Positions 14,582-37,583 of a stretch of DNA of 64,000 nucleotides are shown one piece after another. A program made the translations under genes and the position numbers. The notes under the pieces were generated by a model, which was not told the origin of the DNA, searched no databases, and saw only the letters and a program-made list of their open reading frames with translations. Position 1 is the stretch's first letter; every line of letters begins with the position of its first letter. Location of the stretch: UHGV virus genome UHGV-1383976, one strand, 5' to 3'. The DNA is from a virus.

Positions 14582-17500
14582 TTACTCACCCCTTACGTGC
14601 GTTGTAATGCGACCATATTCATCAATGTCTGTTATTTCTTCGATTAGATGATATGGAGTTCGGGAGTATTTCTTTGCCAGAAACCCGTCATCCCTTCTAA
14701 TACCACACACAATAATCTTGTTGCCGCGTGAAAAGATCGATTTTTCAATAATATGCTTCTTTCCATCTGGCTCTCTTTCAGAAATTTGTTTGTCATAATT
14801 CGCAAATGCTTCTCCAAAAATTTTGACTTGAACAACACCATCTTTTGTCAATAACGAAACAATCTTTTTTGCTTTATCTCTATCCAACACAGTCCCGCAA
14901 ATACGATGTATTCTATAAATCGGAATCGGCGCGCTATCACTATCTTTGCCGCGTGGTTTGAAATAAGTTTCAACGTCAGGCTGCTCTTTCAGCTTGAAAA
15001 AGTCTGAAAAACCTTGAGCGCGCTCATCAATATTTTGCAATTCATGCTCATGGAAATAACACGAAACACTATCCATTTCCCACTTACTTATCGAGCCAAG
15101 ACAATACTTATTCCATACATCTCGCGTCAACCGCTCATTCACGGTGTCTAATAACTCGTCGTGATTTTCTTTTATCCATTTGCGAACATTATCCATATAT
15201 TTCTTATAGATTTTATCCCAAGCTGTGATACTAATTTTGAAACCACTTTCAGTTTCATCACTTGTACTCAAACAGTCGAGTGAGAAGTTTTTATCGAGAA
15301 AATTCAACGCGATATTATCCAGTCCATAGAACGAGGAATCTAACTTCATTTTTTTGAGGTATTTCGTGAAATTATAAACACGACGTTCAAAGTCAAGTTT
15401 TTCTGGTAGCATCCCAAAATTTATCAACATTGCCATATTTTGAAGGGTAATGCGTTTTTTTGTATCACTAATTAGGCCGACATATTCACGCATTAGATTT
15501 ACTCTATCGCCAAAGGCATCAAAAGCGCCGCATTTTATAAGGTTTATCATTTGTGGCTTGTTAATTTTGACTTTAGAGAGAAAGTCTGGAATTGATGTGT
15601 AGGGACGATTGGCAATTATGGATTTGACGATGTCTTCGCCGACCTTGACGATGCCGCTCATACCGTAGCGAATTGTTGAGTTTTCAACATCAGGGGAGAA
15701 GGTAAAAGTGGATTTATTGATATCAGGAGGAGAAATAGAAATCCCGGCCATTCGCATCTTACCAATCGCCGACGCAATTTTACCATAGTTGGTTGTTTTG
15801 ACTTTTTTCTTTTTCTTCTTTATATCAATTTTTTCTTCTTCTTCTTCATCATCGTCGTCATCATCTTCGGTGTCATCGACAAATTCTTCAATACAGTTAT
15901 TATAACTATATTCAATAATGTTTTCTGACGTTTCATCTTCATCATCATTTGACTCATTGCCGCCACTATCGCTAATCAAACACGCGCAATTCCAAAAAAT
16001 TGTTGGAAAACGATATGCAAGATTCATTTCCTGCAAAGCTACAAGCGAATAGGAAAGAGTGTGTGCGCGGCAGAATGAATATCCTCTCTGGACTCTGAAC
16101 AAAACATCCCATACATAATGGGCAAGAGTCATATCACAACCTTTTTCTTTTGCATTTTCAAAATAGGCTTTTTCACATTCATCAAAGAGTTTACCTTGTT
16201 TTTTTGCAATCGCCTTTCGACATTTATCCGCAAAAGTCAGATTATTTCCTCCAAGCCTTTCTTCCTGCAGAAGCTGCATCATTCCTTCTTGACTCTCACA
16301 TATACCACTCGTTATCGCATTATGTCCAATTAACCATTTTATATCTTCATTTTTTAATCCATATTGAATCATTTCGTCTTGCCATTCATTGATATTCAAA
16401 CGATATCTTGCCCACATATCAAGTGGCTGCTCGGCTCCTTTTTCAGGAGCCATTAGACGAATTACTGAATTCAAAACAGCTAATTCACTAACGTTTTTAG
16501 GATGAGTTAGTGCTATTCCAGAAATGCCACTTGGCTGTTCCATTTGGAATAAACTGGATATCTTATGATTCCAAACCATTTCCCACATTTCTGGTGCAGT
16601 TCGTTCAAGATTATATATGCCAATTACACTTTCATAAGTTTCACGTAATGTTGGCTTTCGCTCTATATAACCATAATCACATAATAAGTCTAGCTCATTA
16701 TGTATTTTATCAAGGGCTTCAATTGACAACATATCAATTTTGATTAGCGATGCATCCTCCGCATCGTGAAGCTCAAAAGCCGTGATGACTGTGCCATCAG
16801 GCGCGCGAGTTAACGCTGTCGATTCCGTAAAAGGCTCGTCAACGAAGATTACTCCACCGGCGTGAACACCAATGCCGCAAATTAGCCCCTCAATTTTTGA
16901 AGCAACTTCCCAAACATCGCTGTAGGTTTTCATTGCTTCAACAAATTGTTTTACTGGCTTAAAACCTTTGTCTTCATCGCCCTTTATACATTGAGTAAGT
17001 GAGCGAAGTTGCCCACGATCGGCTGGAATCAGAGACGCCAAATAGGATGCTATATCAACATCAATTCCCAAGCCGCGGCAGGCCGTTAAAATTGCCGATT
17101 TAGATTTTTCTGTTTTGAATGTAATAACATTCGCAACTCTGTCTTCTCCATAAAACTCACGGAACTTCTGTAAAACTTGTGCGCGACGTCCACCTTCAAT
17201 ATCGGTATCGACATCCAATACTGAAGCTCGTTCGGGATTAAGAAAACGCCAATGAAATACTTGAGTTTCTTCTTGGACTGGATTTATCTGTGTTATATCC
17301 AATGCATATAACAAAGTAAATCCTGCACCCGAACCACGCCCCGGCCCGACAAGAGAACCAGCTTCCCAACATAAATCAATATTTTTCTGCAGATTCAGAA
17401 AATAAGTCGACCAATGTGTATGATTCGTTATTGACGAACGCCATGTATCATCAAGACAAATATTTATCTCATCATACGCTCGTTTGTTCTGCAAGCCCGG

Positions 17501-18571
17501 CTTCCGCTGGATGCCATCAATAATCGCCCAAACCAGTTTTCTATCACCCCAATAATCAGAGTTATAGAAAGTTTCCAAATAAGGGATTTCTTGTTTGAGA
17601 ATATCATATGCTGCCTCATCTTCAGGAAAAGTTTTCCAATAAAGTTCTGGAATTTTTAAGGGCCGCATTAGTGAAAAATCCTCACACATTTCACCTATTT
17701 TGAGAATATTGCAATATGCGAGTTGAAGTTGCTCTTCAGTGAAATAGTTGAAATACTCTTCTATTTCTTTTGTATCCATAAGATACGTAGTTGCATAGAA
17801 ATCATCTACTTCTCGCTCACCATTTTGTGCATTAAGATATGCTTTATGAATCGCGCAGTCTTCTTTTTTGAGATAATGGCTGTCAGTTGTTATAACATAG
17901 GAAATGTCATATTTAACTGATAATTCAAGCAACTTCTTATTTACATAAATCTGCTCTTTGTTATAACTTGGTTGCATTTCAAAAAAGAAATTACCGTGCC
18001 CAAAAAGTTTATCCAAAGACAAAATCCAGTTTTCAATTTTGCCATTGAGTGAGCTATCATTTCGCGCTTTGAGAAGCTGAGTAGGAAGACAGCCGCCAAG
18101 ACAAGCTGTCATTCCCACAATATGCCCCGGATTGGCTCCCACGATTTCAAACAAATCACTATAATAAGTTGGCATACGACGCATACCTCGCGCCATATAA
18201 CTACGCAATCCTGCGCGAGTAGATAATTCTCTAATTTGTTTATGCCCGATTGCATCTTTAGCTAACAAGATAAAATGATAATATTTATCTTGTCCCGCAA
18301 TAAAATTCGATGCGTTTAACCCATTTCGACAAAGATAAATTTCATTTCCTTGAATGAATTTGAAATCAGGACATTTTTCTTTTACTTTTTTATAATACTT
18401 TTCTGCCTTAATCGCGCCAGATATTGATTCATGGTCTGTAAGAGCGACGACTTTATGACCTAACTCGATGGCGCGATCAATTAGGTCTGAGACTTTTATT
18501 ATACAGTCTCGAAGCCTTTCATTAGAATAATCCGAATGATTATGTAGCGATCCGGGATACGGAATATTCAA
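14582..18571 (-). CDS. DNA polymerase III alpha subunit (DnaE/PolC family, N-terminal PHP domain)
   Basis: 1329 aa. The N-terminal PHP motif HNHSDYS...LTDHESISG matches the Pol III alpha PHP domain. Contains an acidic/Lys low-complexity insert (DDDDDDEEEEEKIDIKKKKKK). Confidence 0.85.
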   Translation of the reverse strand: MNIPYPGSLHNHSDYSNERLRDCIIKVSDLIDRAIELGHKVVALTDHESISGAIKAEKYYKKVKEKCPDFKFIQGNEIYLCRNGLNASNFIAGQDKYYHFILLAKDAIGHKQIRELSTRAGLRSYMARGMRRMPTYYSDLFEIVGANPGHIVGMTACLGGCLPTQLLKARNDSSLNGKIENWILSLDKLFGHGNFFFEMQPSYNKEQIYVNKKLLELSVKYDISYVITTDSHYLKKEDCAIHKAYLNAQNGEREVDDFYATTYLMDTKEIEEYFNYFTEEQLQLAYCNILKIGEMCEDFSLMRPLKIPELYWKTFPEDEAAYDILKQEIPYLETFYNSDYWGDRKLVWAIIDGIQRKPGLQNKRAYDEINICLDDTWRSSITNHTHWSTYFLNLQKNIDLCWEAGSLVGPGRGSGAGFTLLYALDITQINPVQEETQVFHWRFLNPERASVLDVDTDIEGGRRAQVLQKFREFYGEDRVANVITFKTEKSKSAILTACRGLGIDVDIASYLASLIPADRGQLRSLTQCIKGDEDKGFKPVKQFVEAMKTYSDVWEVASKIEGLICGIGVHAGGVIFVDEPFTESTALTRAPDGTVITAFELHDAEDASLIKIDMLSIEALDKIHNELDLLCDYGYIERKPTLRETYESVIGIYNLERTAPEMWEMVWNHKISSLFQMEQPSGISGIALTHPKNVSELAVLNSVIRLMAPEKGAEQPLDMWARYRLNINEWQDEMIQYGLKNEDIKWLIGHNAITSGICESQEGMMQLLQEERLGGNNLTFADKCRKAIAKKQGKLFDECEKAYFENAKEKGCDMTLAHYVWDVLFRVQRGYSFCRAHTLSYSLVALQEMNLAYRFPTIFWNCACLISDSGGNESNDDEDETSENIIEYSYNNCIEEFVDDTEDDDDDDEEEEEKIDIKKKKKKVKTTNYGKIASAIGKMRMAGISISPPDINKSTFTFSPDVENSTIRYGMSGIVKVGEDIVKSIIANRPYTSIPDFLSKVKINKPQMINLIKCGAFDAFGDRVNLMREYVGLISDTKKRITLQNMAMLINFGMLPEKLDFERRVYNFTKYLKKMKLDSSFYGLDNIALNFLDKNFSLDCLSTSDETESGFKISITAWDKIYKKYMDNVRKWIKENHDELLDTVNERLTRDVWNKYCLGSISKWEMDSVSCYFHEHELQNIDERAQGFSDFFKLKEQPDVETYFKPRGKDSDSAPIPIYRIHRICGTVLDRDKAKKIVSLLTKDGVVQVKIFGEAFANYDKQISEREPDGKKHIIEKSIFSRGNKIIVCGIRRDDGFLAKKYSRTPYHLIEEITDIDEYGRITTHVRGE

Positions 18572-18599
18572 CTTATCACCCCTTTCCTTTATTTTCTAT

Positions 18600-18635
18600 A
18601 TATATTATATCAAAAATTAGCCTAAAAGTCAAACT
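18600..18635 (-). promoter_or_regulatory. Consensus phage promoter upstream of the polymerase gene
   Basis: Minus strand TTGACT (18627-18632 on +) - N17 - TATAAT (18604-18609), with extended GATATAATATATATA. Confidence 0.55.
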
Positions 18636-19717
18636 TAAAAGCTCCACTCCGCGTTTTCGACTTCAACATCTACGATTTGCAATTGGGGGGTGTAATTTCC
18701 TAACCATTCATTAACATTGGGTTTACCCACAATTGTTAAACACATTTCAGGCCATTTATGAAGCTTTTCAATCAAGTCTTTTGCACGGAACTTTATGTAG
18801 GTAATTCCATTTTTTTCAATTCGTATTGTATCTTGATTCTTGCCGATTATTTTTACATCATCGGGTTTTATATAGAGGTTTGTTATCGCTATAAGACTCT
18901 GAGGATTATTTTGACCCCAAACTCTTTCGTAGCGTGCCAAATCAAAAATAATGTTGCTTATATCACTATCACTTGCCTTGCGAACGAAATCGACGTCATA
19001 GTTATTATTACCAAAGTCATAAGATGCCAATTGGGTATTAGAAAGATTCAGTAGTTCATTGCGGCTGTTGGCTGGAATAGCAAACCCAGCAGCGTTAGCG
19101 TGCCCTTGCACATAGTCAAACAATGACGTATCTAACAAATAGTCTTTGAACGACGTGAGCGCACTCTGCGAAAGTCCTCTAATACTTCCCTTTATCATTC
19201 CATCTGAGCCTTCGCGTCCTATCATTGTTGGCTTATGGTATCGCGCGCTAAGTTGCGTGGCAATTAGACCATTCAGCTCAGGAGGAAAGTCATCATCGTC
19301 ATCAAGTTTAACAAACAAAATTTTATTTTCTAGCAAATCATACTTGTGTATCTTATACTCAAGTTGCTCGGTTGCTTTTTCTTTTGCCTTATCTTGATGC
19401 GACTTTGCATTTGTACATTCGCGCGTGCTTTCAATTGCGAGCTTTTCAAGTGTTCCTTTTGCCCCGCGCTTGCCACTTGGCACAAGTGTTTCACCCATAA
19501 CAACTGCACGATAAAGGCGCTCTTTTTCCTCTTGAGAACCTACACGAATCATTGCATTTATCAATGGTGTTATGTAAAATGCAACAGTTGTCGGATTGAT
19601 CTCACCGCCCATTGAGTAGGACTGTTTTTCAACAAGAGTTTTGAGAAAAAAGTTTTGTATGTTAGAACAACCACGCTGAACAATAAATTGATTTTCATAA
19701 GACAACATACTCATCAT
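18635..19717 (-). CDS. RecJ-like ssDNA exonuclease, C-terminal part (DHHA1 region)
   Basis: The motif VQGHANAAGFAI resembles the DHHA1 GGGH motif. Its N-terminus (MMSMLSYENQFIV) continues the RecJ motif IV region that ends the upstream DHH ORF. Confidence 0.6.
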   Translation of the reverse strand: MMSMLSYENQFIVQRGCSNIQNFFLKTLVEKQSYSMGGEINPTTVAFYITPLINAMIRVGSQEEKERLYRAVVMGETLVPSGKRGAKGTLEKLAIESTRECTNAKSHQDKAKEKATEQLEYKIHKYDLLENKILFVKLDDDDDFPPELNGLIATQLSARYHKPTMIGREGSDGMIKGSIRGLSQSALTSFKDYLLDTSLFDYVQGHANAAGFAIPANSRNELLNLSNTQLASYDFGNNNYDVDFVRKASDSDISNIIFDLARYERVWGQNNPQSLIAITNLYIKPDDVKIIGKNQDTIRIEKNGITYIKFRAKDLIEKLHKWPEMCLTIVGKPNVNEWLGNYTPQLQIVDVEVENAEWSF

Positions 19718-27025: not shown

Positions 27026-27061
27026 ATATATTATATCGCAGATTTTGAAAAAAGTCAAATT
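27026..27061 (-). promoter_or_regulatory. Consensus phage promoter (tandem with the previous one)
   Basis: Minus strand TTGACT (+ 27053-27058) - N17 - TATAAT (+ 27030-27035). Confidence 0.5.
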
Positions 27062-29427
27062 TTGACCAGACCAATTACTTCATTTTTACCAGACAACTTC
27101 AATGTCTTGACTCCTTGCGCTGTTCGACTCTGAAGCGGCAAATCATTTACTTTGATGCGAAGGCGCGCACTTGTCGATATAACAACCAGTTCGCGCTCAT
27201 TCTGTAGAGCAACAAAATCAACAATTCCTTCTGGCATTGCTTTCACGCCCTTTGTATAGCGACCCTGAACAGGTAGCTCGTCAACAGACAACCGCTTTGC
27301 CAATCCTTCTTTTGACACAACGACAATTTCTTTTTCCGATGTAATAGCACGGGCACTTGATACTTCATCGCCGAGACTTAGCTTGATGCCATGAACACCT
27401 TTTGTAGCACGTCCAATGGCATTTATCGAGTCAGTCTCAATTATGAGGAACTGGCCCTTCTTTGTGGAAAGTGCAAGATTTTCCTCGTTTATTAGCAATA
27501 CATTGACTAATTCATCACCAGTAGTAAACTCAATTGCTTTTATACCGCCAGAACGATTAGTATTATATTCTTTGAGTTCAGTTTTTTTGACAAAACCTTG
27601 CTTCGTGATAAACATAGCATGGCGCGCACTTGTGGTTTTGTTGTAAGATGTAAGTGTAAGAACCTTGTCATCACCCGCAAAATCGAGATAGGTTTTCTTT
27701 TCATTTTCAAAAGATGACAAAGGCCGTACATACATCTGCCCTTTTTGTGTAAAAAACAAGAGCACATCGCCTGTCATACAGGAAGTTGAATATGTGATAT
27801 ATTCGCCATCTGCCAATTTCATTTTATTGCCAACCGTATTACGGCTTTGGGAATAAAGAGAAGAAATCTCATTGACATAAATCTCATTCTGATTTGTCAG
27901 ACTTACCTGATATTTTTTTACTTCAACAGGTTCATCGTTTTCATCTGCTGACAAATTCAAAATCTGTGTGCGACGGTCATCTCCAAATTTCTCGGCAACT
28001 TCACGCCATCCCTTTTTGATTTCTTCTTTGAACAGTTCCTCATTATTGAGAGTTTTTTCAATAGACTCCGCTTTAGAAATCAAATCAGCCCTTTCGTTTT
28101 CCAGCTTTTGAACTTCTAAGTGTGCTAAACGGCTTAACTTCATATCTAATACAGCTTTGGCTTGTGCTTCATCGAGTAAAAAATTCTGTCGCAATGCAAC
28201 AGAGGCAGCGCTAGCTGACGTGGAACTGCGAATTGTTTGAACAATCTCCTCAATATGTGCCATACAAATCAGCAGACCATCAATAATGTGAATACGAGAT
28301 TTGATTTTATTAAGGTCAAATTCAAAAGCACGACGATACACAACGCGCTCATGGTCGATATGAGACTGAAGCATCTCCTTCCAACCAAATACACGAGGAA
28401 AACGGCCATTATCTAGCATTGTGAAGTTGATGCCATAATGGTACTGAAGAAACGTATTTTTGAACAGATACTTTAGTACTTTATCAGGATTTGCTTTCTT
28501 TGTTAAGTAAATTTTAATTAGCGGAGTAGAACCGGTAAGGTCATTAAATCTTTCGATGCCGGGGTTATCCTCTCCGTTCACAATTTCCTCAAGTTGGCCG
28601 CAGATTGTATTGGTGTAAACCCCATATGGAATTTCAGTTATAGTAAAACATTTTTCCTTAGAGTCATACTTAGCCACACTGCGCAACTTACAAGCAAATC
28701 CCTGACCATTCTTCATAGATTTCTTTACATCATCTTCGTTATAAAGAATAGCGCCAGTAGCAAAATCGGGGGCGCAATAGATTTCATTAAAATCGCAATC
28801 TGGATTGTCAATAAGATAAATAAGCGCATTGTTCAATTCACGCAGGTTATATTGAGGAATAGAGCAGGCCATACCCGTTGCAATACCACTACTACCATTT
28901 ACGATGTTGTAATACCCCTTAGTAGGAAGTACAGATGGATACAGCTCATTATCAGCATAATTATCACGCCAATCATCAATAGTATCTTTATCAATGTCAG
29001 CAAATAAATATGCAGCGAGCTTAGAGAGCCTTGTCTCCGTATAACGAGGAGCCGCCCAGTTGCCAGATGATAACAAAGTTCCGCCATTGCCTTTTACTTC
29101 TACAAGTGGATATCTCATAGCAAAAGCCTGACCAGCACGCATTATAATACCTTCACAAGAACTGTCACCGTGAATATAAAAATGTTTCATAGCATCACCA
29201 ATCGCGGCCATTGTTTTTTGAAAGGGCTTGGTTGCCACATATTTATATTTATCCATACAGTAAAAAATTTGACGCGCAGATGGTTTAAGTCCATCGCGCA
29301 CATCGACCAATGCTCGCGATTGAATAACTGCAGCTGCGTATTGCGCGAAACTTTGCTTTATTATGTCGGTCATATTATTGCTGTTCACTAAATATTTCCT
29401 CCAATCTATCTTCAATAATTTCTTCAT
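27055..29427 (-). CDS. Type II DNA topoisomerase, A-like (GyrA/ParC/T4 gp52-like) subunit
   Basis: 790 aa. DVRDGLKPSARQIFYCM resembles the GyrA N-terminal motif around the catalytic-Tyr region. Confidence 0.85.
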   Translation of the reverse strand: MKKLLKIDWRKYLVNSNNMTDIIKQSFAQYAAAVIQSRALVDVRDGLKPSARQIFYCMDKYKYVATKPFQKTMAAIGDAMKHFYIHGDSSCEGIIMRAGQAFAMRYPLVEVKGNGGTLLSSGNWAAPRYTETRLSKLAAYLFADIDKDTIDDWRDNYADNELYPSVLPTKGYYNIVNGSSGIATGMACSIPQYNLRELNNALIYLIDNPDCDFNEIYCAPDFATGAILYNEDDVKKSMKNGQGFACKLRSVAKYDSKEKCFTITEIPYGVYTNTICGQLEEIVNGEDNPGIERFNDLTGSTPLIKIYLTKKANPDKVLKYLFKNTFLQYHYGINFTMLDNGRFPRVFGWKEMLQSHIDHERVVYRRAFEFDLNKIKSRIHIIDGLLICMAHIEEIVQTIRSSTSASAASVALRQNFLLDEAQAKAVLDMKLSRLAHLEVQKLENERADLISKAESIEKTLNNEELFKEEIKKGWREVAEKFGDDRRTQILNLSADENDEPVEVKKYQVSLTNQNEIYVNEISSLYSQSRNTVGNKMKLADGEYITYSTSCMTGDVLLFFTQKGQMYVRPLSSFENEKKTYLDFAGDDKVLTLTSYNKTTSARHAMFITKQGFVKKTELKEYNTNRSGGIKAIEFTTGDELVNVLLINEENLALSTKKGQFLIIETDSINAIGRATKGVHGIKLSLGDEVSSARAITSEKEIVVVSKEGLAKRLSVDELPVQGRYTKGVKAMPEGIVDFVALQNERELVVISTSARLRIKVNDLPLQSRTAQGVKTLKLSGKNEVIGLVKI

Positions 29428-30301
29428 AAGTAATATAATATAATTTTATATTATGTTCTTGGCAATAATTATATTTAATTTTATCTCGCTTTTGGCAATC
29501 TTTTAGAGCTTCTTCTGTATTCCAACCAGTTCCAATTTTAAAATGAATATTACCTTGAAATTCAATTAAAAAATCAAGCTCTCCACTATCCTTAAATATT
29601 GCAAAATCAAATTTATAATAATTGCCTAAAGTTGTGTAAAAATCCTTAAAGAAATATTCAGCTTGATAATTCTTATGATTAGCATTTAACCAACGCGCTA
29701 TACTTGCATTGCCTCTTGACTTAGTACATCCACAAGATTCCGTATCACCAAAGCGCAGATACCTATGATTGACAATACATTCATTACCACAATCGCATTT
29801 ACATAGCCACATTCTATCTCTATGCCCATTATTATGGTCTAGCCAATGACTAAATTTTATTACAGTTAACTTACCAAACCGTTGTCCTGCTAAATTGTTA
29901 AAATTTGTTCTTTCAATGTGATTGTTTTTATTTCCACAATAATGAACTACATTTGAAGTTAATTGAGTTCTTTCAAAAACAACTTCATCACCACAAGAGC
30001 ATTTACACTTATATAAACGAGGAGAGGAATTTTCTATTTCCTCTATAACAGTTAAATCACCAAACTGCATACCCGGTAGATATAATCCATTTTTACAACC
30101 GCAGCTCGTGGTACGATAATTCTTTCTGGTCAAATTATTACCTCTCACTTCTACAATTTTTCCACAACTACATTGGCATTTCCAAGCTACTGCATTTCCT
30201 TTATTTTTTACTCTATATAAAACTGTTAATCTACCAAAAACTTTTCCTCTTAAATCCTTAGCTTTTCCAACAGGAATCTCATCTTCATGCATTTTATTCA
30301 A
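29375..30301 (-). CDS. Putative homing endonuclease: four Cys-rich repeats plus a C-terminal PD-(D/E)XK (DUF559/Vsr-like) domain
   Basis: The repeat unit WxCxCxCG-x(14-17)-SCGC occurs four times. The C-terminus FDFAIF...LIEFQGNIH resembles the DUF559 core. Paralog of 32536..33255 and, in the C-terminal domain, of 37176..37583. Confidence 0.55.
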   Translation of the reverse strand: MNKMHEDEIPVGKAKDLRGKVFGRLTVLYRVKNKGNAVAWKCQCSCGKIVEVRGNNLTRKNYRTTSCGCKNGLYLPGMQFGDLTVIEEIENSSPRLYKCKCSCGDEVVFERTQLTSNVVHYCGNKNNHIERTNFNNLAGQRFGKLTVIKFSHWLDHNNGHRDRMWLCKCDCGNECIVNHRYLRFGDTESCGCTKSRGNASIARWLNANHKNYQAEYFFKDFYTTLGNYYKFDFAIFKDSGELDFLIEFQGNIHFKIGTGWNTEEALKDCQKRDKIKYNYCQEHNIKLYYITYEEIIEDRLEEIFSEQQ

Positions 30302-30515
30302 CCTCTACTAAAATTATCATATTATTATTTTCATTATTGAAACTAACATTTCTGACGATTTTATTATAATAAGGCTCTAATTTGTCTAAGGTTCTTCCAA
30401 TTTTAGGACTATTATCCATAATAATACGCCAACAATATTCTTTTCCCTCAATTGAGGTAAAGAAATATATGCCATCTAAATTACAGAGAGAAGTAAATTG
30501 CTCTAAATTAATCAT
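30294..30515 (-). CDS. Hypothetical small protein
   Basis: 73-aa ORF with ATGA overlap to the upstream small ORF and to the endonuclease gene. Confidence 0.4.
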   Translation of the reverse strand: MINLEQFTSLCNLDGIYFFTSIEGKEYCWRIIMDNSPKIGRTLDKLEPYYNKIVRNVSFNNENNNMIILVEVE

Positions 30516-30667
30516 GTATCTAGACTATCCTTTTCTTTATTTTCCTCAATTAACTTTTTAAAATATTTATACCAATAGCAGGACTTATCTGGTAGACAAG
30601 TCCTGCACATAGCAGTTTTGCAATTACAGAATTCAAACAAAGGGCATTTATTCCATTTATTAGTCAT
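30512..30667 (-). CDS. Unlisted small Cys-rich ORF (51 aa) translationally coupled to the topoisomerase B gene
   Basis: Hand translation gives MTNKWNKCPLFEFCNCKTAMCRTCLPDKSCYWYKYFKKLIEENKEKDSLDT. The start overlaps the topoisomerase B stop (gaATGA) and the stop overlaps the next ATG. Confidence 0.3.
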   Translation of the reverse strand: MTNKWNKCPLFEFCNCKTAMCRTCLPDKSCYWYKYFKKLIEENKEKDSLDT

Positions 30668-32523
30668 TCTCTGATCTCCGAAAAGTCTACATTCTGTATA
30701 ATAAAGTCACGTCTTGGACTTACTTCACTTCCCATTAGAGAATAAAGTAAATCCATTGCCTCTTCATCATACTCTATCACGTCCATACGCTGATATTCAG
30801 GATCAAACATAGATTTACGTGCCTGATTGGGTTCAAGAGAACCGAGGCCCTTATTACGCTGAACTTCGCCCTTTACCTTGGTTTTATTTGCTTCATATTC
30901 TGCATCAGTAAAGAAATAAGACTCAGTTTTTCCATTATTTACAATCCACAAAGGAGAGCGCAACCAACACAGTCTGCCTTCACGAATAAACTGAGGAGCA
31001 ATATGTGCTAAAGCTGCCATAATAAGTAGGCCAATATGATAGCCGTCACTATCAGCATCGGTACAGATGGCAAGCTTGCCGTATCGAAGTTTTTTTGCAT
31101 CATACTTTTCAGGTACAATGTTCATAGCACTTAATAGCAATTTAATTTCTTCATTCTCATAAACCTTCTCATCAGGATTAGATAAGGCATTGATAATTTT
31201 ACCTCGAATAGCCATAATACCATACTTAGTATAATCACGACCCTGCGCCAAGCCTCCTAGTGCAGAATCACCCTCAGCAATCAACAGAGTGGAATCTTCT
31301 CCCAAAAATTCCGCGTCTTTCAATTTATCACTTGAAAAGACTTTTCGCTTTTGATTTTTTTCAACTTCTTTAGAAGCGTTCAAAACTTGCTGACGCGCAC
31401 GCTCAGCCATCATTTCAGCTTTCTTTTCTTTAGCCAAAAGTTCAACAACTTTATCAAATTCATCCTTATGCTTTCTTACAAACTCTTTTATCGCTTCGGT
31501 AAAAACTATTTGTGTATAACCTCGAAGTTCAGGATTCTGAATACGAGATTTAGTTTGATTCTGATAAATTGGATGAGGATGCCGTACATTTACAATATAT
31601 ACAAGTCCTTTACGTATCATATCGGCGTTATAATCACCTTTAGATAAAGAATTGATAGTGCGCGTAAAAGCTGTTTTTGCACCCGTACTGGGTGTTCCTC
31701 CATCTATATTAAGTGCGCCATTAGAAAAAATGTATTCAGTTTCTTTTCCACTCGTCCATTGGGCAAAAACCTCAACTTCAACCTCATCATCAAACTCTTT
31801 ATATCCATAAATATAAGACTTATGAAGCGGCTTGCTAATATTGTCTTTTGCAAAATCTTTCAGCCCATTTAGTGAATAAAAGGTTTCACTTTTACCTTTA
31901 TAAGTAAAAACAAAATAAACCTTTGGAATAAAGTAAGATGTAAGTCGAAGTTCTTCTCTAATTCGCTCACACTGAAAGGCTGGTTGGTCTTTTTCAATGT
32001 TCAATACCTCTTTATTAGGAGTAAATCTAAAAGTAGAACCGGTAGTTAATATATCTCGAACTTTCTGGCTTTTAGGAGAAGCAGGAATACCATCATTAAA
32101 TTTTAAATAATATTCTGCGCCTTCTCTTCGACTCCATACTTCAAATATACTTGAACAAACGCAAACCGCCGATGTCCCAATTCCATGACAACCGCGTACC
32201 TTTTTGTAATTTATCGTATCAAATTTACCTGAGCTGTGCGCGGAACTGAAAAGTTCAATAAGAACTTCCTCACAGTCCTTATTTGGTCCCCTAGGGACTC
32301 CCGCCCCACTATCTACACACATTAAAGTATTGCAATCATCAGAAAGAGTAATTTCAATTTTATTTCCTCGGCCCATCATTGCTTCATCACAAGCATTATT
32401 CAAGACTTCAAGAAAACAATTGAACGCCGCATCTTGCGCGGTTGCACCTAAGTACATACCCGGAGTTGAGCGGCAGGCCGTTCTGAAGTCTCTTACTTGG
32501 ATAGAATTAGCATCATAACTCAT
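30664..32523 (-). CDS. Type II DNA topoisomerase, B-like (GyrB/T4 gp39-like ATPase plus TOPRIM) subunit
   Basis: 619 aa. GHKL ATPase motifs (NNACDEAMMG, GxGxPRG) and TOPRIM LLIAEGDSALGG. Confidence 0.85.
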   Translation of the reverse strand: MSYDANSIQVRDFRTACRSTPGMYLGATAQDAAFNCFLEVLNNACDEAMMGRGNKIEITLSDDCNTLMCVDSGAGVPRGPNKDCEEVLIELFSSAHSSGKFDTINYKKVRGCHGIGTSAVCVCSSIFEVWSRREGAEYYLKFNDGIPASPKSQKVRDILTTGSTFRFTPNKEVLNIEKDQPAFQCERIREELRLTSYFIPKVYFVFTYKGKSETFYSLNGLKDFAKDNISKPLHKSYIYGYKEFDDEVEVEVFAQWTSGKETEYIFSNGALNIDGGTPSTGAKTAFTRTINSLSKGDYNADMIRKGLVYIVNVRHPHPIYQNQTKSRIQNPELRGYTQIVFTEAIKEFVRKHKDEFDKVVELLAKEKKAEMMAERARQQVLNASKEVEKNQKRKVFSSDKLKDAEFLGEDSTLLIAEGDSALGGLAQGRDYTKYGIMAIRGKIINALSNPDEKVYENEEIKLLLSAMNIVPEKYDAKKLRYGKLAICTDADSDGYHIGLLIMAALAHIAPQFIREGRLCWLRSPLWIVNNGKTESYFFTDAEYEANKTKVKGEVQRNKGLGSLEPNQARKSMFDPEYQRMDVIEYDEEAMDLLYSLMGSEVSPRRDFIIQNVDFSEIRE

Positions 32524-32535
32524 TTTTTTACCTCA

Positions 32536-33255
32536 TCATTCTAACTCTAAATCTTCCCATATAACATCTCGTCCTCTTTGATAATAAACACATAAAAGCG
32601 GAATATTATTTTTCTTACAATATTCTTCTTTCATTTTATCGTGTTTTATCAATTCATCACTAAAAAATCCATTAGAGGGCTGGGTATGTTGTTCCCCTTG
32701 AAATTCAATTAATTTTATTAGTTCTCTATTGTTATTAAAAATGGCGAAATCAAAGCGAAGCGACAACTGATCTTTCAAATCATCAAAAATATATTCTTTC
32801 TCATATAAAATTCCGTGTTTTTTCAAAAGCGTTTCTATTTGAAATTCTCCTTTTGATCGCATACAACCACAAGACGTAGTGTCTCCAATAGCAAGATAAG
32901 TATGTTGAACACGGCAATAATTTCCACAATCGCACAGACACTTATATATCCGATTTCTTTTTCCATTTGGTTTTACAATAAATCCATCTTCAGACAGCAC
33001 TTGTAATTTTCCAATTTTTTGGCCAACTAAAGAACCGCCGCGTTTTAGATTCGACTCAACAGCTCTTTGCTTTTGATAACACCCGCAAGATTTTGTGTTG
33101 CCACTTCTAAGATGCTTCCCCAGAACGACAACCCCATTGCCACATCTACAACGGCATTTCCAACGTGCCCTTCTATCTTTAGAATTTTCGGCTCTTCCTA
33201 TTACTTCCAAATAGCCATATTGATTACCTATTTCATTTATTACGGTGCTTCCCAT
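32536..33255 (-). CDS. Putative homing endonuclease paralog: two Cys-rich repeats plus PD-(D/E)XK (DUF559-like) domain
   Basis: Repeats KCRCRCGNGVVV...SCGCY and KCLCDCGNYCRV...SCGCM. C-terminus FDFAIF...LIEFQGEQH. Confidence 0.55.
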   Translation of the reverse strand: MGSTVINEIGNQYGYLEVIGRAENSKDRRARWKCRCRCGNGVVVLGKHLRSGNTKSCGCYQKQRAVESNLKRGGSLVGQKIGKLQVLSEDGFIVKPNGKRNRIYKCLCDCGNYCRVQHTYLAIGDTTSCGCMRSKGEFQIETLLKKHGILYEKEYIFDDLKDQLSLRFDFAIFNNNRELIKLIEFQGEQHTQPSNGFFSDELIKHDKMKEEYCKKNNIPLLCVYYQRGRDVIWEDLELE

Positions 33256-33319
33256 TTATAGCTATTTCATCTCCAATCTTATTTTTCTTTTTTAATTATA
33301 ACAAAAATTGAGGAAGAAA

Positions 33320-33547
33320 TCAAATTTCTTCCTCTAAATTCATTTTGTCGATTTGTCTTTTATCTCTTGGTGAATGGTCAACGGCTGCACCATAGGCCCC
33401 TTTATGTCGATATGATGCGTGACCATTTTTGGCTTTAGTTTTCTTTGATTTTCCTGCTGTTATGTATTTACTTATTTCACCGCTATTGGCAAAATAGCCG
33501 TCCTTTACATCGACAGCGCGCCCAGCATGATCAAGATGAGATAACAA
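33320..33547 (-). CDS. Hypothetical small basic protein
   Basis: 75-aa ORF. Confidence 0.3.
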   Translation of the reverse strand: MLSHLDHAGRAVDVKDGYFANSGEISKYITAGKSKKTKAKNGHASYRHKGAYGAAVDHSPRDKRQIDKMNLEEEI

Positions 33548-34742: not shown

Positions 34743-35791
34743 AAAAGAAAGTCCTGAGCACGTGTAATAGCAACATAAGCAAGACGTCCTTCTTCGACCA
34801 TACCAAGCGGCGCTCTGTGAGTATAATAGTTCGGCTCAGGAATTGTTGCGCCTATTACAACGACTTTCTTTTGTTGAAGTCCTTTTGAAGAATGTATTGT
34901 GAGGACTTTAACGGTATTCTGTTTCATTTTTTCTTGGAGTTGCCCAAGATTTACTTCCTTTTGCTTGAAAGTATCGCAAAAAATGCCGCGGCTTTCAAGA
35001 TAAGATTTGACAGTTTCAAGCTGTGCATTAGTGCGAGTCAATACAAACCATTCACCAAATTTACCATCTTGAAGTATATAATTTGCAACCGTTTCCAAAT
35101 TGTAAAGAATTGTAATCTTTTTCCCCATTTCATCTCGCATTAGAGTAGAATTGTCATAATAGCCACAATTCATCCGCTCAATAGCCCATTTTCCAAATTC
35201 GTGAATAACGCGCGCATTGCGGAAATTTTCAGATAGCTTATAAGTTGCTACTCCATCAGTTTGGCTCAAATTTACAATAAGGTCAGGATTACTGCCTGCA
35301 AATGCATATATCGTTTGCTTCTCGTCCCCTAATATTGTAAATCGTTTTGGATTTACCATTTCCAGAATAAATTCAAACTGATGGTTATTACTATCCTGCG
35401 CCTCGTCAAGCAGCAAATGATCAACAGGAAAATTACTTACACAGCGCGGGTTTTGTTTTACTAAATTGAATAGTTCATCAAAATCCTCACTTTCAATCGT
35501 CTCTCTGGTTGCAATTTGTTCAGTATGAAGTAAAAAGTTTGCAAATGAATGAACAGTGCCGCAAAATCCAATTTGTAAAGGTTCAAGGCGATTTATAATT
35601 TCTTGCGCCGCATTATTTGTAAATGTAATAGCCACAATATGTGAGGGCAATGTTCCCTGAGATACAAGCCACTTTATGCGTTCAATAAGACAAAAAGTCT
35701 TTGAAGTACCCGCGCTAGACATTACGACAACCTTGTCTTCTGGTGCGGTTATTATTCTACGCTGTTGTTCTGTTATTTTTATTTCATTCAT
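34682..35791 (-). CDS. UvrD/Rep-like superfamily 1 DNA helicase (short form)
   Basis: Walker A MSSAGTSKTF, motif II LLLDEAQD, and a C-terminal VLTIHSSKGLQ / VAITRA (motifs V/VI). Confidence 0.6.
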   Translation of the reverse strand: MNEIKITEQQRRIITAPEDKVVVMSSAGTSKTFCLIERIKWLVSQGTLPSHIVAITFTNNAAQEIINRLEPLQIGFCGTVHSFANFLLHTEQIATRETIESEDFDELFNLVKQNPRCVSNFPVDHLLLDEAQDSNNHQFEFILEMVNPKRFTILGDEKQTIYAFAGSNPDLIVNLSQTDGVATYKLSENFRNARVIHEFGKWAIERMNCGYYDNSTLMRDEMGKKITILYNLETVANYILQDGKFGEWFVLTRTNAQLETVKSYLESRGIFCDTFKQKEVNLGQLQEKMKQNTVKVLTIHSSKGLQQKKVVVIGATIPEPNYYTHRAPLGMVEEGRLAYVAITRAQDFLLWVKRRRVKKEQEQKFRSWE

Positions 35792-36603
35792 TATCCTACT
35801 CTCTCATTCAATCCAAATTTTTTTGTATCATAAAATTCAGTCCAATATTTTTCGCGTTCAGTTAGCTTATCTTTTGAAACTTTTTCCAGCAATTCAAAAG
35901 TAAAGTTTTCAATCCCATCTTCCTCCATTATGGTATGAAGGCGCGAATGACTGATGGTGCCACAATGATAGGCAGACTTAGCGTGTTGAACCCAACGGTC
36001 GCGCACATTTGTGGATTTGCCTATATAAATTTCGCCTGTTTTTTCACGTGTGATTTTATAGATGCCACTTGGTTGTTCTCCGTTTAAGACACGGCGTGTC
36101 ATTTCAAGGACAGGTTTAGCACAATAAGTATCATAAATCATCTTGTCAATATCAATTCGACGATTGAGCCGTGGAGCAATTTCTCGCAAAACTTGTATAT
36201 CACTTAACGCTTCAGGAGACAAATTGATTTTGAAGAAGGTTTGTTCTTCGATTTTCTTTTTTTCACGACGTATATCTTCATTTAGAACTTCGCGGCGTTC
36301 ACGCAAAGCGTCAAGAGTCTTTTGGACAATATCACATTGATATTGCGCGTCTTGCGTTTCTTGACTTATTTGTTCCATTCGAGCGTTATGTTGAAGTTCA
36401 ACCTCATCAAGCTCTTGTCGATATTTTTCTCTTACTTCTAAGACATTGCGCGCTGCTTCGTCTATAATTTCTTTTTCTTTTCGTAAAACTAAATTTCTTT
36501 TATAATAGTGAATGTATATAAAGTTAACAATTATCAGAGCAGCTATTATGAATATGGCCATCACAATTCCTCCTATATTTCTTACTATATATAAGTATAA
36601 CAT
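35791..36603 (-). CDS. Membrane-anchored coiled-coil protein with C-terminal GIY-YIG nuclease domain
   Basis: An N-terminal TM helix (IVMAIFIIAALIIVNFIYI), a long coiled coil, then GIYKITREKTGEIYIGKSTNVRDRWVQH (GIY-YIG). Confidence 0.5.
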   Translation of the reverse strand: MLYLYIVRNIGGIVMAIFIIAALIIVNFIYIHYYKRNLVLRKEKEIIDEAARNVLEVREKYRQELDEVELQHNARMEQISQETQDAQYQCDIVQKTLDALRERREVLNEDIRREKKKIEEQTFFKINLSPEALSDIQVLREIAPRLNRRIDIDKMIYDTYCAKPVLEMTRRVLNGEQPSGIYKITREKTGEIYIGKSTNVRDRWVQHAKSAYHCGTISHSRLHTIMEEDGIENFTFELLEKVSKDKLTEREKYWTEFYDTKKFGLNERVG

Positions 36604-36645: not shown

Positions 36646-37203
36646 TTATGGGTTGGGTTCATCCTCTAATACTTGCCAACACGACATTCGTGTATAATAT
36701 TTGTCTATATAACTATTACCTTTGAGCTTTTTATAGTCTTTATAAAGAGTATCCAATTGTTCTTTTACAGACATAGGAAAAATTCTTACATCTCGATAGG
36801 CATGATATATATCCATTATATTCGCGCGCAAGATATTCTTTTGGCTAATGGCTAGTAAATTTATTTGTTCGCTTTGTCGAGTATTGGTTTCTTCAATTCT
36901 ATCTAAGCGTTCATCAATCCCGTCAAGCCGAGTATCAATATTACCCAACTGTTTTTGTATAGGGGCGAGTTTCTTTTCAATTTCTTTTCCGACTTCTCCT
37001 GCTCGTCTCTGTTTTATTTTACTCCAAAGACCTTGAAAGAAGCCAAATTTTTTACAAATTTTTTCAAATCCATCGGCGACAAGGTAAATAGCTATAACTA
37101 CGCCACCGATAAGTTCTGGTGAAAGTTCCATTCGCTCACCTCCTCGTCTTATAGAAGTAGCAATTAGAGCATTTATTATACAGAATTTTGATGCTCTCTC
37201 CAA
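36646..37203 (-). CDS. Membrane plus coiled-coil protein
   Basis: 185 aa. An N-terminal TM segment (LIGGVVIAIYLV) and a coiled-coil middle. Confidence 0.4.
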   Translation of the reverse strand: MERASKFCIINALIATSIRRGGERMELSPELIGGVVIAIYLVADGFEKICKKFGFFQGLWSKIKQRRAGEVGKEIEKKLAPIQKQLGNIDTRLDGIDERLDRIEETNTRQSEQINLLAISQKNILRANIMDIYHAYRDVRIFPMSVKEQLDTLYKDYKKLKGNSYIDKYYTRMSCWQVLEDEPNP

Positions 37204-37583
37204 ACTTCATCATTATGCCAACGAGATTTCGCGCGATATTTATCCTGAAATAGTTCGTGCGCATTAGTAAGCGAATAAATATCCCAAAATGGGATGATAT
37301 ACAAGGGAATACAATTGGCTAGTGCATAACTGATTTTTCGGCGATCATGCTCTTGTTGTTTCAGTAAGCCACTACGACCGCCAAAGACTTCATAATAATG
37401 TTGTTGACCATTTACTTCGATAAGGCCGTGCGGCGTTGAAAAATCATAACGGAACCGACCGCCGCGCAAATCCGTGTAAGATACTTCTTTTTGATAATCA
37501 ATATGAGATTTTTGAAGTAAATCGCTTATAAAATTTTCATAATGGCTAGCCATTATATTTCCTCTATTTGACGCCACAAGCAC
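37176..37583 (-). CDS. Small PD-(D/E)XK (DUF559/Vsr-like) endonuclease
   Basis: RFRYDFSTPHGLIEVNGQQHY shares its core with the C-terminal domains of 29375..30301 and 32536..33255. Confidence 0.5.
   Translation of the reverse strand: MLVASNRGNIMASHYENFISDLLQKSHIDYQKEVSYTDLRGGRFRYDFSTPHGLIEVNGQQHYYEVFGGRSGLLKQQEHDRRKISYALANCIPLYIIPFWDIYSLTNAHELFQDKYRAKSRWHNDEVWREHQNSV

Follow-up and report, generated by a model that had tools for sequence, protein, structure and literature searches.

Putative homing endonuclease genes with Cys-rich repeat arrays and a Vsr-like nuclease at the topoisomerase genes of a gut phage

Why do two related nuclease genes stand directly upstream of the two topoisomerase II subunit genes of a gut phage? 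The locus lies in the virus genome UHGV-1383976, of which a stretch of 64,000 nt (the window) was analyzed. We named the two genes A and B, and a third nuclease gene C; an open reading frame (ORF) check of the window recovered all three on the minus strand with unchanged coordinates (Table 1). A preliminary description of the window had stated that A and B flank the GyrB-like gene and that A separates gyrB from gyrA, and the coordinates confirm this arrangement. Our analyses indicate that A and B are very probably free-standing homing endonuclease genes in which a Vsr-like nuclease follows an array of Cys-rich units. They represent two site-specific lineages: the B-type lies between the gyrB promoter and ribosome-binding site (RBS) and the gyrB ATG, and the A-type lies directly upstream of the gyrA ATG. 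We base this interpretation on insertion at specific sites, on a sporadic distribution, on signs of co-conversion or target immunity, and on decay. For A and B, we observed the domain architecture, fold and catalytic motif conservation, as well as exact polymorphism, decay products, incongruence and, for A, co-variation of the flank.

Site-specific insertion upstream of gyrB and gyrA

Relatives (numbered with the prefix L) were fetched via GyrB and are hence unbiased for A and B; an earlier fetch via B homologs was biased. Among the GyrB-retrieved relatives, B is present in L009 and L011 and absent from L008, L010, L012, L013, L014, L015 and L017. Some B-less relatives have a GyrB that is 79-94% identical to that of the window. 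At the DNA level, window positions 32535..33264 are a clean insertion of ~730 bp compared with L008, located between the RBS GGAGATGAAA and the gyrB ATG. In B-less genomes, the promoter AAATTTGATTT-N16-TATAAT and the RBS GGAGATGAAA lead straight to the gyrB ATG. In the window, B is placed exactly between this RBS and the ATG and brings a new RBS for gyrB. In a second lineage with a different promoter sequence, B is ~9 nt from the gyrB ATG. The close homologs of B are on gut-metagenome phage contigs of ~120-140 kb, directly upstream of gyrB, and B-type genes are always just upstream of this gene. The three B lineages share ~69% identity with one another whether the adjacent GyrB proteins are 50% or 85% identical.

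Full-length A was found in the window only and in none of the GyrB-retrieved relatives. A-type genes with two units (238-246 aa) occur 0-8 nt upstream of gyrA in L026, L027 and L028, and A-less relatives have only a promoter and RBS at this position. Several copies are degenerate. L015 retains a remnant consisting of the last 53 codons of A (91% amino-acid identity), the L028 copy has two in-frame stops, the first unit of the L026 copy is scrambled, and the L027 copy has a Cys-to-Phe change. Between the window and L026, A is 85% identical, compared to 49% for GyrB and 69% for GyrA. In gyrA, the first ~25 codons change with the presence of A, encoding MT[DQ][IV][IV]K..AAAVIQ where A is present and ..NLTPIIK..AGAVLQ where it is absent. 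Overall, the GyrA of the window is closer to that of A-less L008 than to that of A-containing L026. The empty promoter-gyrA 5' region of the L008/L009 type contains AATCTAACTCCAATTATAAAAGA. From these comparisons, the divergent 5' end of gyrA stands out as a candidate for the target in the empty allele, for the immunity change in the occupied allele, and for a co-conversion tract.

The preliminary description had noted that mobility would be doubtful if every relative carried these genes at one and the same position. The synteny comparison instead revealed presence or absence at exact sites, remnants and pseudogenes. Three features by which homing genes are recognized were thus found: presence/absence polymorphism of both A and B at the same exact site among close relatives, incongruence with flanking genes or co-conversion of flanks, and degenerate copies that fit a cycle of invasion and decay. 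No Rfam intron or other structured RNA was detected around A or B.

An alternative is that A and B are resident nucleases for phage competition or superinfection exclusion that cut related DNA without moving. B uses the gyrB promoter, so expression alongside the replication genes would be expected; the B-type lineages are old (~30% diverged); and C, the paralog with the nuclease alone, is fixed among these phages. We nevertheless consider this improbable, because presence and absence are clean, at identical sites and in two promoter lineages, because the identity of A exceeds that of its flanks, and because the gyrA 5' end co-varies with A. Remnants and pseudogenes also speak against it, and no match to defense-system models was obtained with PADLOC. 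Moreover, homing and exclusion can coexist.

A Vsr-like nuclease behind arrays of Cys-rich units

The nuclease of A and B is Vsr-like and of the EDxHD type within the PD-(D/E)xK superfamily, an already described, rare kind. The signature FDFAIF...LIEFQGxxH, which had been read from A and B at the outset, is present in both sequences, and C has the variant YDFS...LIEVNGQQH. Residues D, E, G, H, D and K are invariant across the nuclease family. The catalytic domain has the Vsr-like fold of the EDxHD family, and the composite EDxHD motif is present, without its first Glu in A. Candidate catalytic residues in B are E137, D169, E184, Q186, H190, D206 and K209, and B retains every conserved residue. 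A retains the D, E, Q, H, D and K of the motif.

The EDxHD prototype is I-Bth0305I, with key residues E170, D196, N208, H213 and D222 (PMC3239194; PDB 3r3p). We aligned its sequence (gp29 of phage 0305phi8-36, checked against 3r3p) to the family with MAFFT. The family columns of E170, D196, E206, N208 and D222 are invariant or nearly so. The family columns aligned to E170, D196, N208 and D222 hold E (N in A), D, N/Q/D and D, and H213 reaches the invariant His column after a one-residue indel. The core strings are alike (AIEVNGVYWH in I-Bth0305I and LIEVNGQQH in C). Sequence homology to I-Bth0305I or Vsr is statistically undetectable, so the tie to the EDxHD family rests on the fold and the order of the motif.

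Membership of a PD-(D/E)XK, DUF559 or Vsr-like group had been expected from the sequence. The Vsr-like fold agrees with this, but the Pfam DUF559 and DUF2726 matches are below threshold. Searches of Pfam and NCBIfam gave nothing above threshold for the nuclease, only weak matches to DUF2726, DUF559 and TnsA-like families, all of the PD-(D/E)xK clan. B scores 17.7 bits against DUF2726 (cut-off 24.7). When the nuclease domains were isolated, 7 of 15 matched DUF2726 (best E-value 2.5e-5) and one matched DUF559 (E-value 0.025). No profile search placed A, B or C in a non-nuclease family, an outcome that would have spoken against the initial proposal.

In PHROGs, A, B and C all match families labeled as homing, intron-encoded or HNH endonucleases (E-values 1e-10 to 1e-47). 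The HNH label, carried by PHROG 374 and 559 and by many phage records, was rejected as a misnomer for A, B and C, because they have no HNH motif and the catalytic domain has a Vsr-like fold. Pfam likewise detected no HNH domain in any of the three, and the matches to PHROG 374 and 559 arise from the shared Cys units. The N-termini of A and B gave no Pfam match to NUMOD or helix-turn-helix (HTH) domains and are composed of Cys-rich, beta-rich units.

The unit has the consensus g..FG.LtV-(variable loop)-W.C.CdCGn...v....L..G.t.SCGC. B had been described with two copies and A with four; B does have two, but both a regular expression and a local hidden Markov model (HMM) found three in A, with CxCxCG motifs at C42, C99 and C167. 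The repeat had also been called Cys6. Across 62 diverse units, C28, C30, C32, G33, C51 and G52 are invariant and C53 is conserved in at least 90%, so that each unit has four invariant and one near-invariant Cys. The sixth (CGNxC) is conserved in the nuclease-adjacent unit only and is not general. CxCxC and CxC are separated by 18 residues in 511 of 599 units, not by 14-17 as first given. A fixed repeat period was ruled out, as the spacing from unit to unit varies between 57 and 73 aa.

The repeats far exceed chance expectation, given local HMM domain E-values of 1e-18 to 1e-24 for the window units (partly circular) and the matches of the unit profile to 121,660 protein clusters (50% identity) at E-values of at most 1e-3, with 64,409 at 1e-10 or below. 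Arrays contain 1-13 units per protein in this cluster search, and the homologs of A and B have one to six. The same Vsr-like nuclease forms the C-terminus of 37 of the best 147 array proteins. Other partners are HNH domains of several Pfam families, AP2, T5orf172/MUG113, helicase and HTH domains. ORFs that interrupt gyrB in L016 and L021 join one unit to a GIY-YIG domain. The unit is also present in 124 cultured-phage records from very different hosts, labeled "hypothetical protein" or "HNH endonuclease". Its fusion partners and wide spread suggest from sequence that it acts like a nuclease-associated modular DNA-binding domain. Defining the unit, which is attached to at least four nuclease types, would correct many such annotations.

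An AlphaFold2 model of a single B unit has a predicted local distance difference test score (pLDDT) of 82. Full-length and single-unit models have three beta-strands, a short helix, the SCGC loop and a longer second helix. The isolated unit had no close structural match, no treble-clef fold, and no match to the treble-clef (DUF4379) profile. It is absent from Pfam, and we found no description of the Cys motif in the literature that could be searched. The "Cys-rich" proteins gp9 and gp10 of phage 0305phi8-36 were rejected as carriers of the unit, as their Cys motif is different. We interpret the units as probably stabilized by zinc and as probably reading a long DNA site.

A bolder proposal is that the CxCxCG...SCGC unit is an undescribed, abundant DNA-binding repeat of which each copy reads a short DNA stretch, in modular and possibly re-programmable arrays. 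We regard this as unlikely. If correct, the arrays would be a natural counterpart of zinc-finger nucleases, here tethered to a Vsr-like cutter, and the gain or loss of units, such as the extra N-terminal unit of A, would retarget the enzyme. With modular recognition, the unit could also give a new scaffold for targeted nucleases.

The architecture bears on another alternative, that A and B are domesticated and not selfish, acting as regulators or DNA-binders for topoisomerase expression or as Vsr-type repair enzymes. Each gene is tightly packed and probably translationally coupled directly upstream of a topoisomerase subunit gene, and Vsr itself is a repair nuclease. Such a role is highly improbable, however. 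Relatives with 79-94% identical GyrB do without these genes, which are therefore dispensable, and pseudogenes and a remnant exist. The same unit is found on classic intron-encoded GIY-YIG and HNH enzymes, and conservation of the catalytic residues would serve no purpose in a pure regulator.

Several points weigh against A and B as homing endonuclease genes. Comparison of the nuclease profile with I-Bth0305I by hhalign gave a probability of 0.13%, and phmmer and hmmsearch of PDB sequences with B and with the full-length and nuclease-only profiles retrieved neither 3r3p nor Vsr. The gyrB 5' coding sequence is nearly identical with and without B, so B could be immune to its own enzyme only if the insertion splits the site. 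B-type genes are ~30% diverged between lineages, which implies that they have been resident for a long time in addition to moving. We only infer that the enzymes cleave DNA, that the units bind zinc and DNA, and which sites are targeted. Finally, the MAFFT alignment places Asn in A at the first Glu of the EDxHD motif; with this replacement and its degenerate middle unit, A may be weakened or inactive.

This last point leads to the alternative that one or both genes, A especially, are inactive selfish relics that were once homing endonucleases. In addition to the Asn, A unit 2 is without its fifth Cys, and close A-type relatives are visibly decaying. This alternative also has little probability in our view: the A ORF is intact (305-308 aa) and keeps D, E, Q, H, D and K, a protein identical to its 305-aa form (P0121) is recorded on other contigs, and B keeps all conserved residues.

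Taking A and B as homing endonuclease genes, we propose a mechanism modeled on I-Bth0305I and on the free-standing enzymes of T4-type phages. A long site at the end of a topoisomerase gene nearest its promoter would be recognized by the Cys-unit array, and cleavage close by would fall to the Vsr-like domain, which may act as a dimer. During co-infection, the enzyme would attack a related phage that has the empty allele, at the 5' end of its topoisomerase gene or close to it, and recombinational repair off the endonuclease-carrying genome would copy the gene plus flanking sequence. The occupied allele would be safe since the insertion (for A, the altered gyrA 5' end) would destroy the site. We interpret the locus as a clear natural homing cycle, with empty, full, remnant and pseudogene states at two adjacent sites before the essential topoisomerase genes.

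Gene C differs in distribution. It adjoins a DNA ligase gene in nearly all relatives (syntenic genes in L008-L019, 40-99% identity), and because of this constant place it is probably fixed and not mobile. It had been described as the nuclease domain alone, which the local HMM supports, and its conserved C-terminal motif is lacking in A and B. C may be a domesticated Vsr-like nuclease.

Gene layout and mosaicism of the replication module

The coordinates of the genes, domains and promoters are collected in Table 1. The probable start codon of A is the ATG at 30292 (305 aa), because this form is identical to P0121 and has GAGG 9 nt upstream. GyrA probably starts at M19 (29373), and therefore the stop of A abuts the GyrA start without overlap. 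The spacer gene orf73 appears to be part of one inserted block together with A. The region of the neighboring 51-aa Cys-rich ORF, which is below the 60-aa cut-off of the ORF listing, is 95% conserved in L015. The local HMM found no further copy of the Cys-rich unit or the nuclease domain in the window.

Table 1 Features of the topoisomerase locus and promoter copies in the 64,000-nt window of UHGV-1383976
Feature	Position	Strand	Remarks
GyrA-like subunit gene	27055..29427	-	Pfam; downstream of A
Gene A	29375..30301	-	308 aa from TTG; three Cys-rich units and Vsr-like nuclease; gyrA-upstream lineage
A nuclease domain	29381..29722	-	KFDFAIF...LIEFQGNIH...RDKIK; local HMM, alignments
A unit 3	29690..29890	-	Nuclease-proximal subtype, sixth Cys (CGNEC)
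A unit 2	29894..30076	-	Degenerate end HYCGN, not SCGC; fifth Cys and conserved Ser lost
A unit 1	30089..30250	-	Extra N-terminal unit compared with two-unit A-type relatives
orf73	30294..30515	-	Found only in the window's version of the gyrB-gyrA spacer
51-aa Cys-rich ORF	30512..30667	-	MTNKWNKCPLFEFCNCKTAMCRTCLPDKSC...; ATGA overlaps with gyrB stop and orf73 start
GyrB-like topoisomerase II subunit gene	30664..32523	-	Pfam; uninterrupted in window; B directly upstream
Gene B	32536..33255	-	239 aa; two Cys-rich units and Vsr-like nuclease; gyrB-upstream lineage
B nuclease domain	32548..32859	-	Residues 133-236; local HMM, alignments
B unit 2	32830..33027	-	Residues 77-142; nuclease-proximal subtype; sixth Cys C114, conserved His118
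B unit 1	33046..33231	-	Residues 9-70; C34, C36, C38, C57, C59
Promoter AAATTTGATTT-N16-TATAAT	33295..33326	-	Upstream of B, then gyrB
270-aa protein	35791..36603	-	N-terminal transmembrane helix, long coiled coil, C-terminal GIY-YIG domain
Gene C	37176..37583	-	135 aa; Vsr-like nuclease domain alone and C-terminal [KR]xR[WY]HND tail
Promoter consensus copies	10573, 33317, 34168	-	Sequence match
Promoter consensus copies	40932, 41592, 43363, 43993, 48867, 49352	+	Sequence match

The promoter upstream of B recurs in the window. The consensus is AAATTTGATTT-N16/17-TATAAT, with 10 matches to AATTTGATTT, compared to 1.3 expected, and the strand of the copies tracks divergent transcription, which switches near 40 kb. 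A hairpin loop holds the -35 region of several copies, and the stem of this hairpin covaries between lineages. We rejected AATTTGATTT as a special recurring hairpin loop, as it belongs to the phage promoter consensus, in which it forms the -35 region, and the match at 29604 inside A as a promoter, as it merely reflects K-F-D-F codons.

Other endonuclease genes occur in this module. The architecture of the 270-aa GIY-YIG protein is atypical for a homing endonuclease, and L027 and L028 have GIY-YIG genes upstream of a UvrD-like helicase in a similar position. In relatives, gyrB is split by GIY-YIG inserts at three or more positions (around residues 420, 441-448 and 491-496; L002, L005, L013, L014, L016, L017, L020 and L021), and two of the GIY-YIG ORFs within split gyrB carry one N-terminal Cys unit. 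From sequence features, these splits look like intron insertions. In L001, L002 and L004 (about 17000-18900), an AAA_24 gene is interrupted by a LAGLIDADG_3 ORF, another mobile element of the same replication module; the gene is intact in L005-L007. Further paralogs with Cys units and a Vsr-like nuclease were found after gyrA in L019 (10431..10953), and between an orf84 homolog and an SSB-like (YorF) gene in L021 (12281..13216). In this phage group, the family thus occupies more than two homing sites.

Identities around the topoisomerase genes are mosaic. Compared with the window, L015 has a GyrB that is 62% and a GyrA that is 98% identical, with a DNA breakpoint inside gyrB at window position ~31487, and in L013 the values are 94% for GyrB and 76% for GyrA. 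Mosaic breakpoints around these genes coincide with endonuclease insertion sites. Homing of A and B would help to account for the breakpoints that lie between gyrB and gyrA among these gut phages. An 11.7 kb region had no megablast match among cultured phages, and the group is known from metagenomes only.

Comparison with known systems

The preliminary description had not recognized this architecture among known homing endonucleases. This holds for the Cys-rich unit, which is apparently undescribed, but the nuclease belongs to the known EDxHD lineage, and PHROGs already labels such proteins as homing or "HNH" endonucleases. The biology of A and B is classic homing, and the Cys-rich repeat array is the part that we could not find described. 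To our knowledge, the EDxHD family is the least studied among homing endonucleases, with one characterized member.

That member, I-Bth0305I, shares the fold, motif order and domain order with A and B, without statistically significant sequence similarity. It is encoded in an intron and has two NUMOD-2 helix-turn-helix motifs (PMC3239194), whereas A and B are free-standing and have two or three Cys-rich, beta-rich units. The "x" position of EDxHD is Gln in A and B but Asn in C, and in A the first Glu is replaced by Asn. Dimerization and a ~60 bp footprint are established for I-Bth0305I.

The gene for Hef of T4-related phages sits between conserved phage genes and is sporadically present. We know of no Cys-rich repeat array in Hef. 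Like A and B, it is a sporadic, free-standing homing endonuclease gene of the Vsr-like family, in which it was placed earlier (PMC3239194, citing Sandegren et al. 2005); we compare it here by description.

I-MsaI, annotated as "function unknown" in a terminase-gene intron of Staphylococcus Kayvirus, shares the nuclease core with A and B at the sequence level. An unannotated ORF of the I-MsaI type was also detected in Clostridium phage phiCP34O (L029, NC_019508.1, 15871..16937). It occupies a ~1 kb interval between the two annotated ORFs into which the tape-measure gene is split, and no group I intron or other Rfam match was found around it. The core common to I-MsaI and the phiCP34O ORF is LPFDFALF...LIEYDGSQH...NDRKKNEYC. 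Both have tandem Cys/His-containing modules followed by the nuclease, as do A and B. However, their N-terminal modules are DUF4379-type treble-clef fingers (H/C..CG...CPxC) and not CxCxCG...SCGC units, and I-MsaI is intron-encoded, whereas A and B are intergenic.

T4 carries mobile endonuclease genes around its topoisomerase genes. The seg and mob genes of T4-type phages resemble A and B in being intergenic, near essential DNA-metabolism genes and sporadic, and in co-conversion of their flanks, but they encode GIY-YIG and HNH enzymes. In general, such phage enzymes have modular DNA-binding units tethered to a small nuclease (PMC3943268). Described NUMODs are helical or HTH-like and not Cys-rich. 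A and B extend the EDxHD family to free-standing forms with a different DNA-binding solution.

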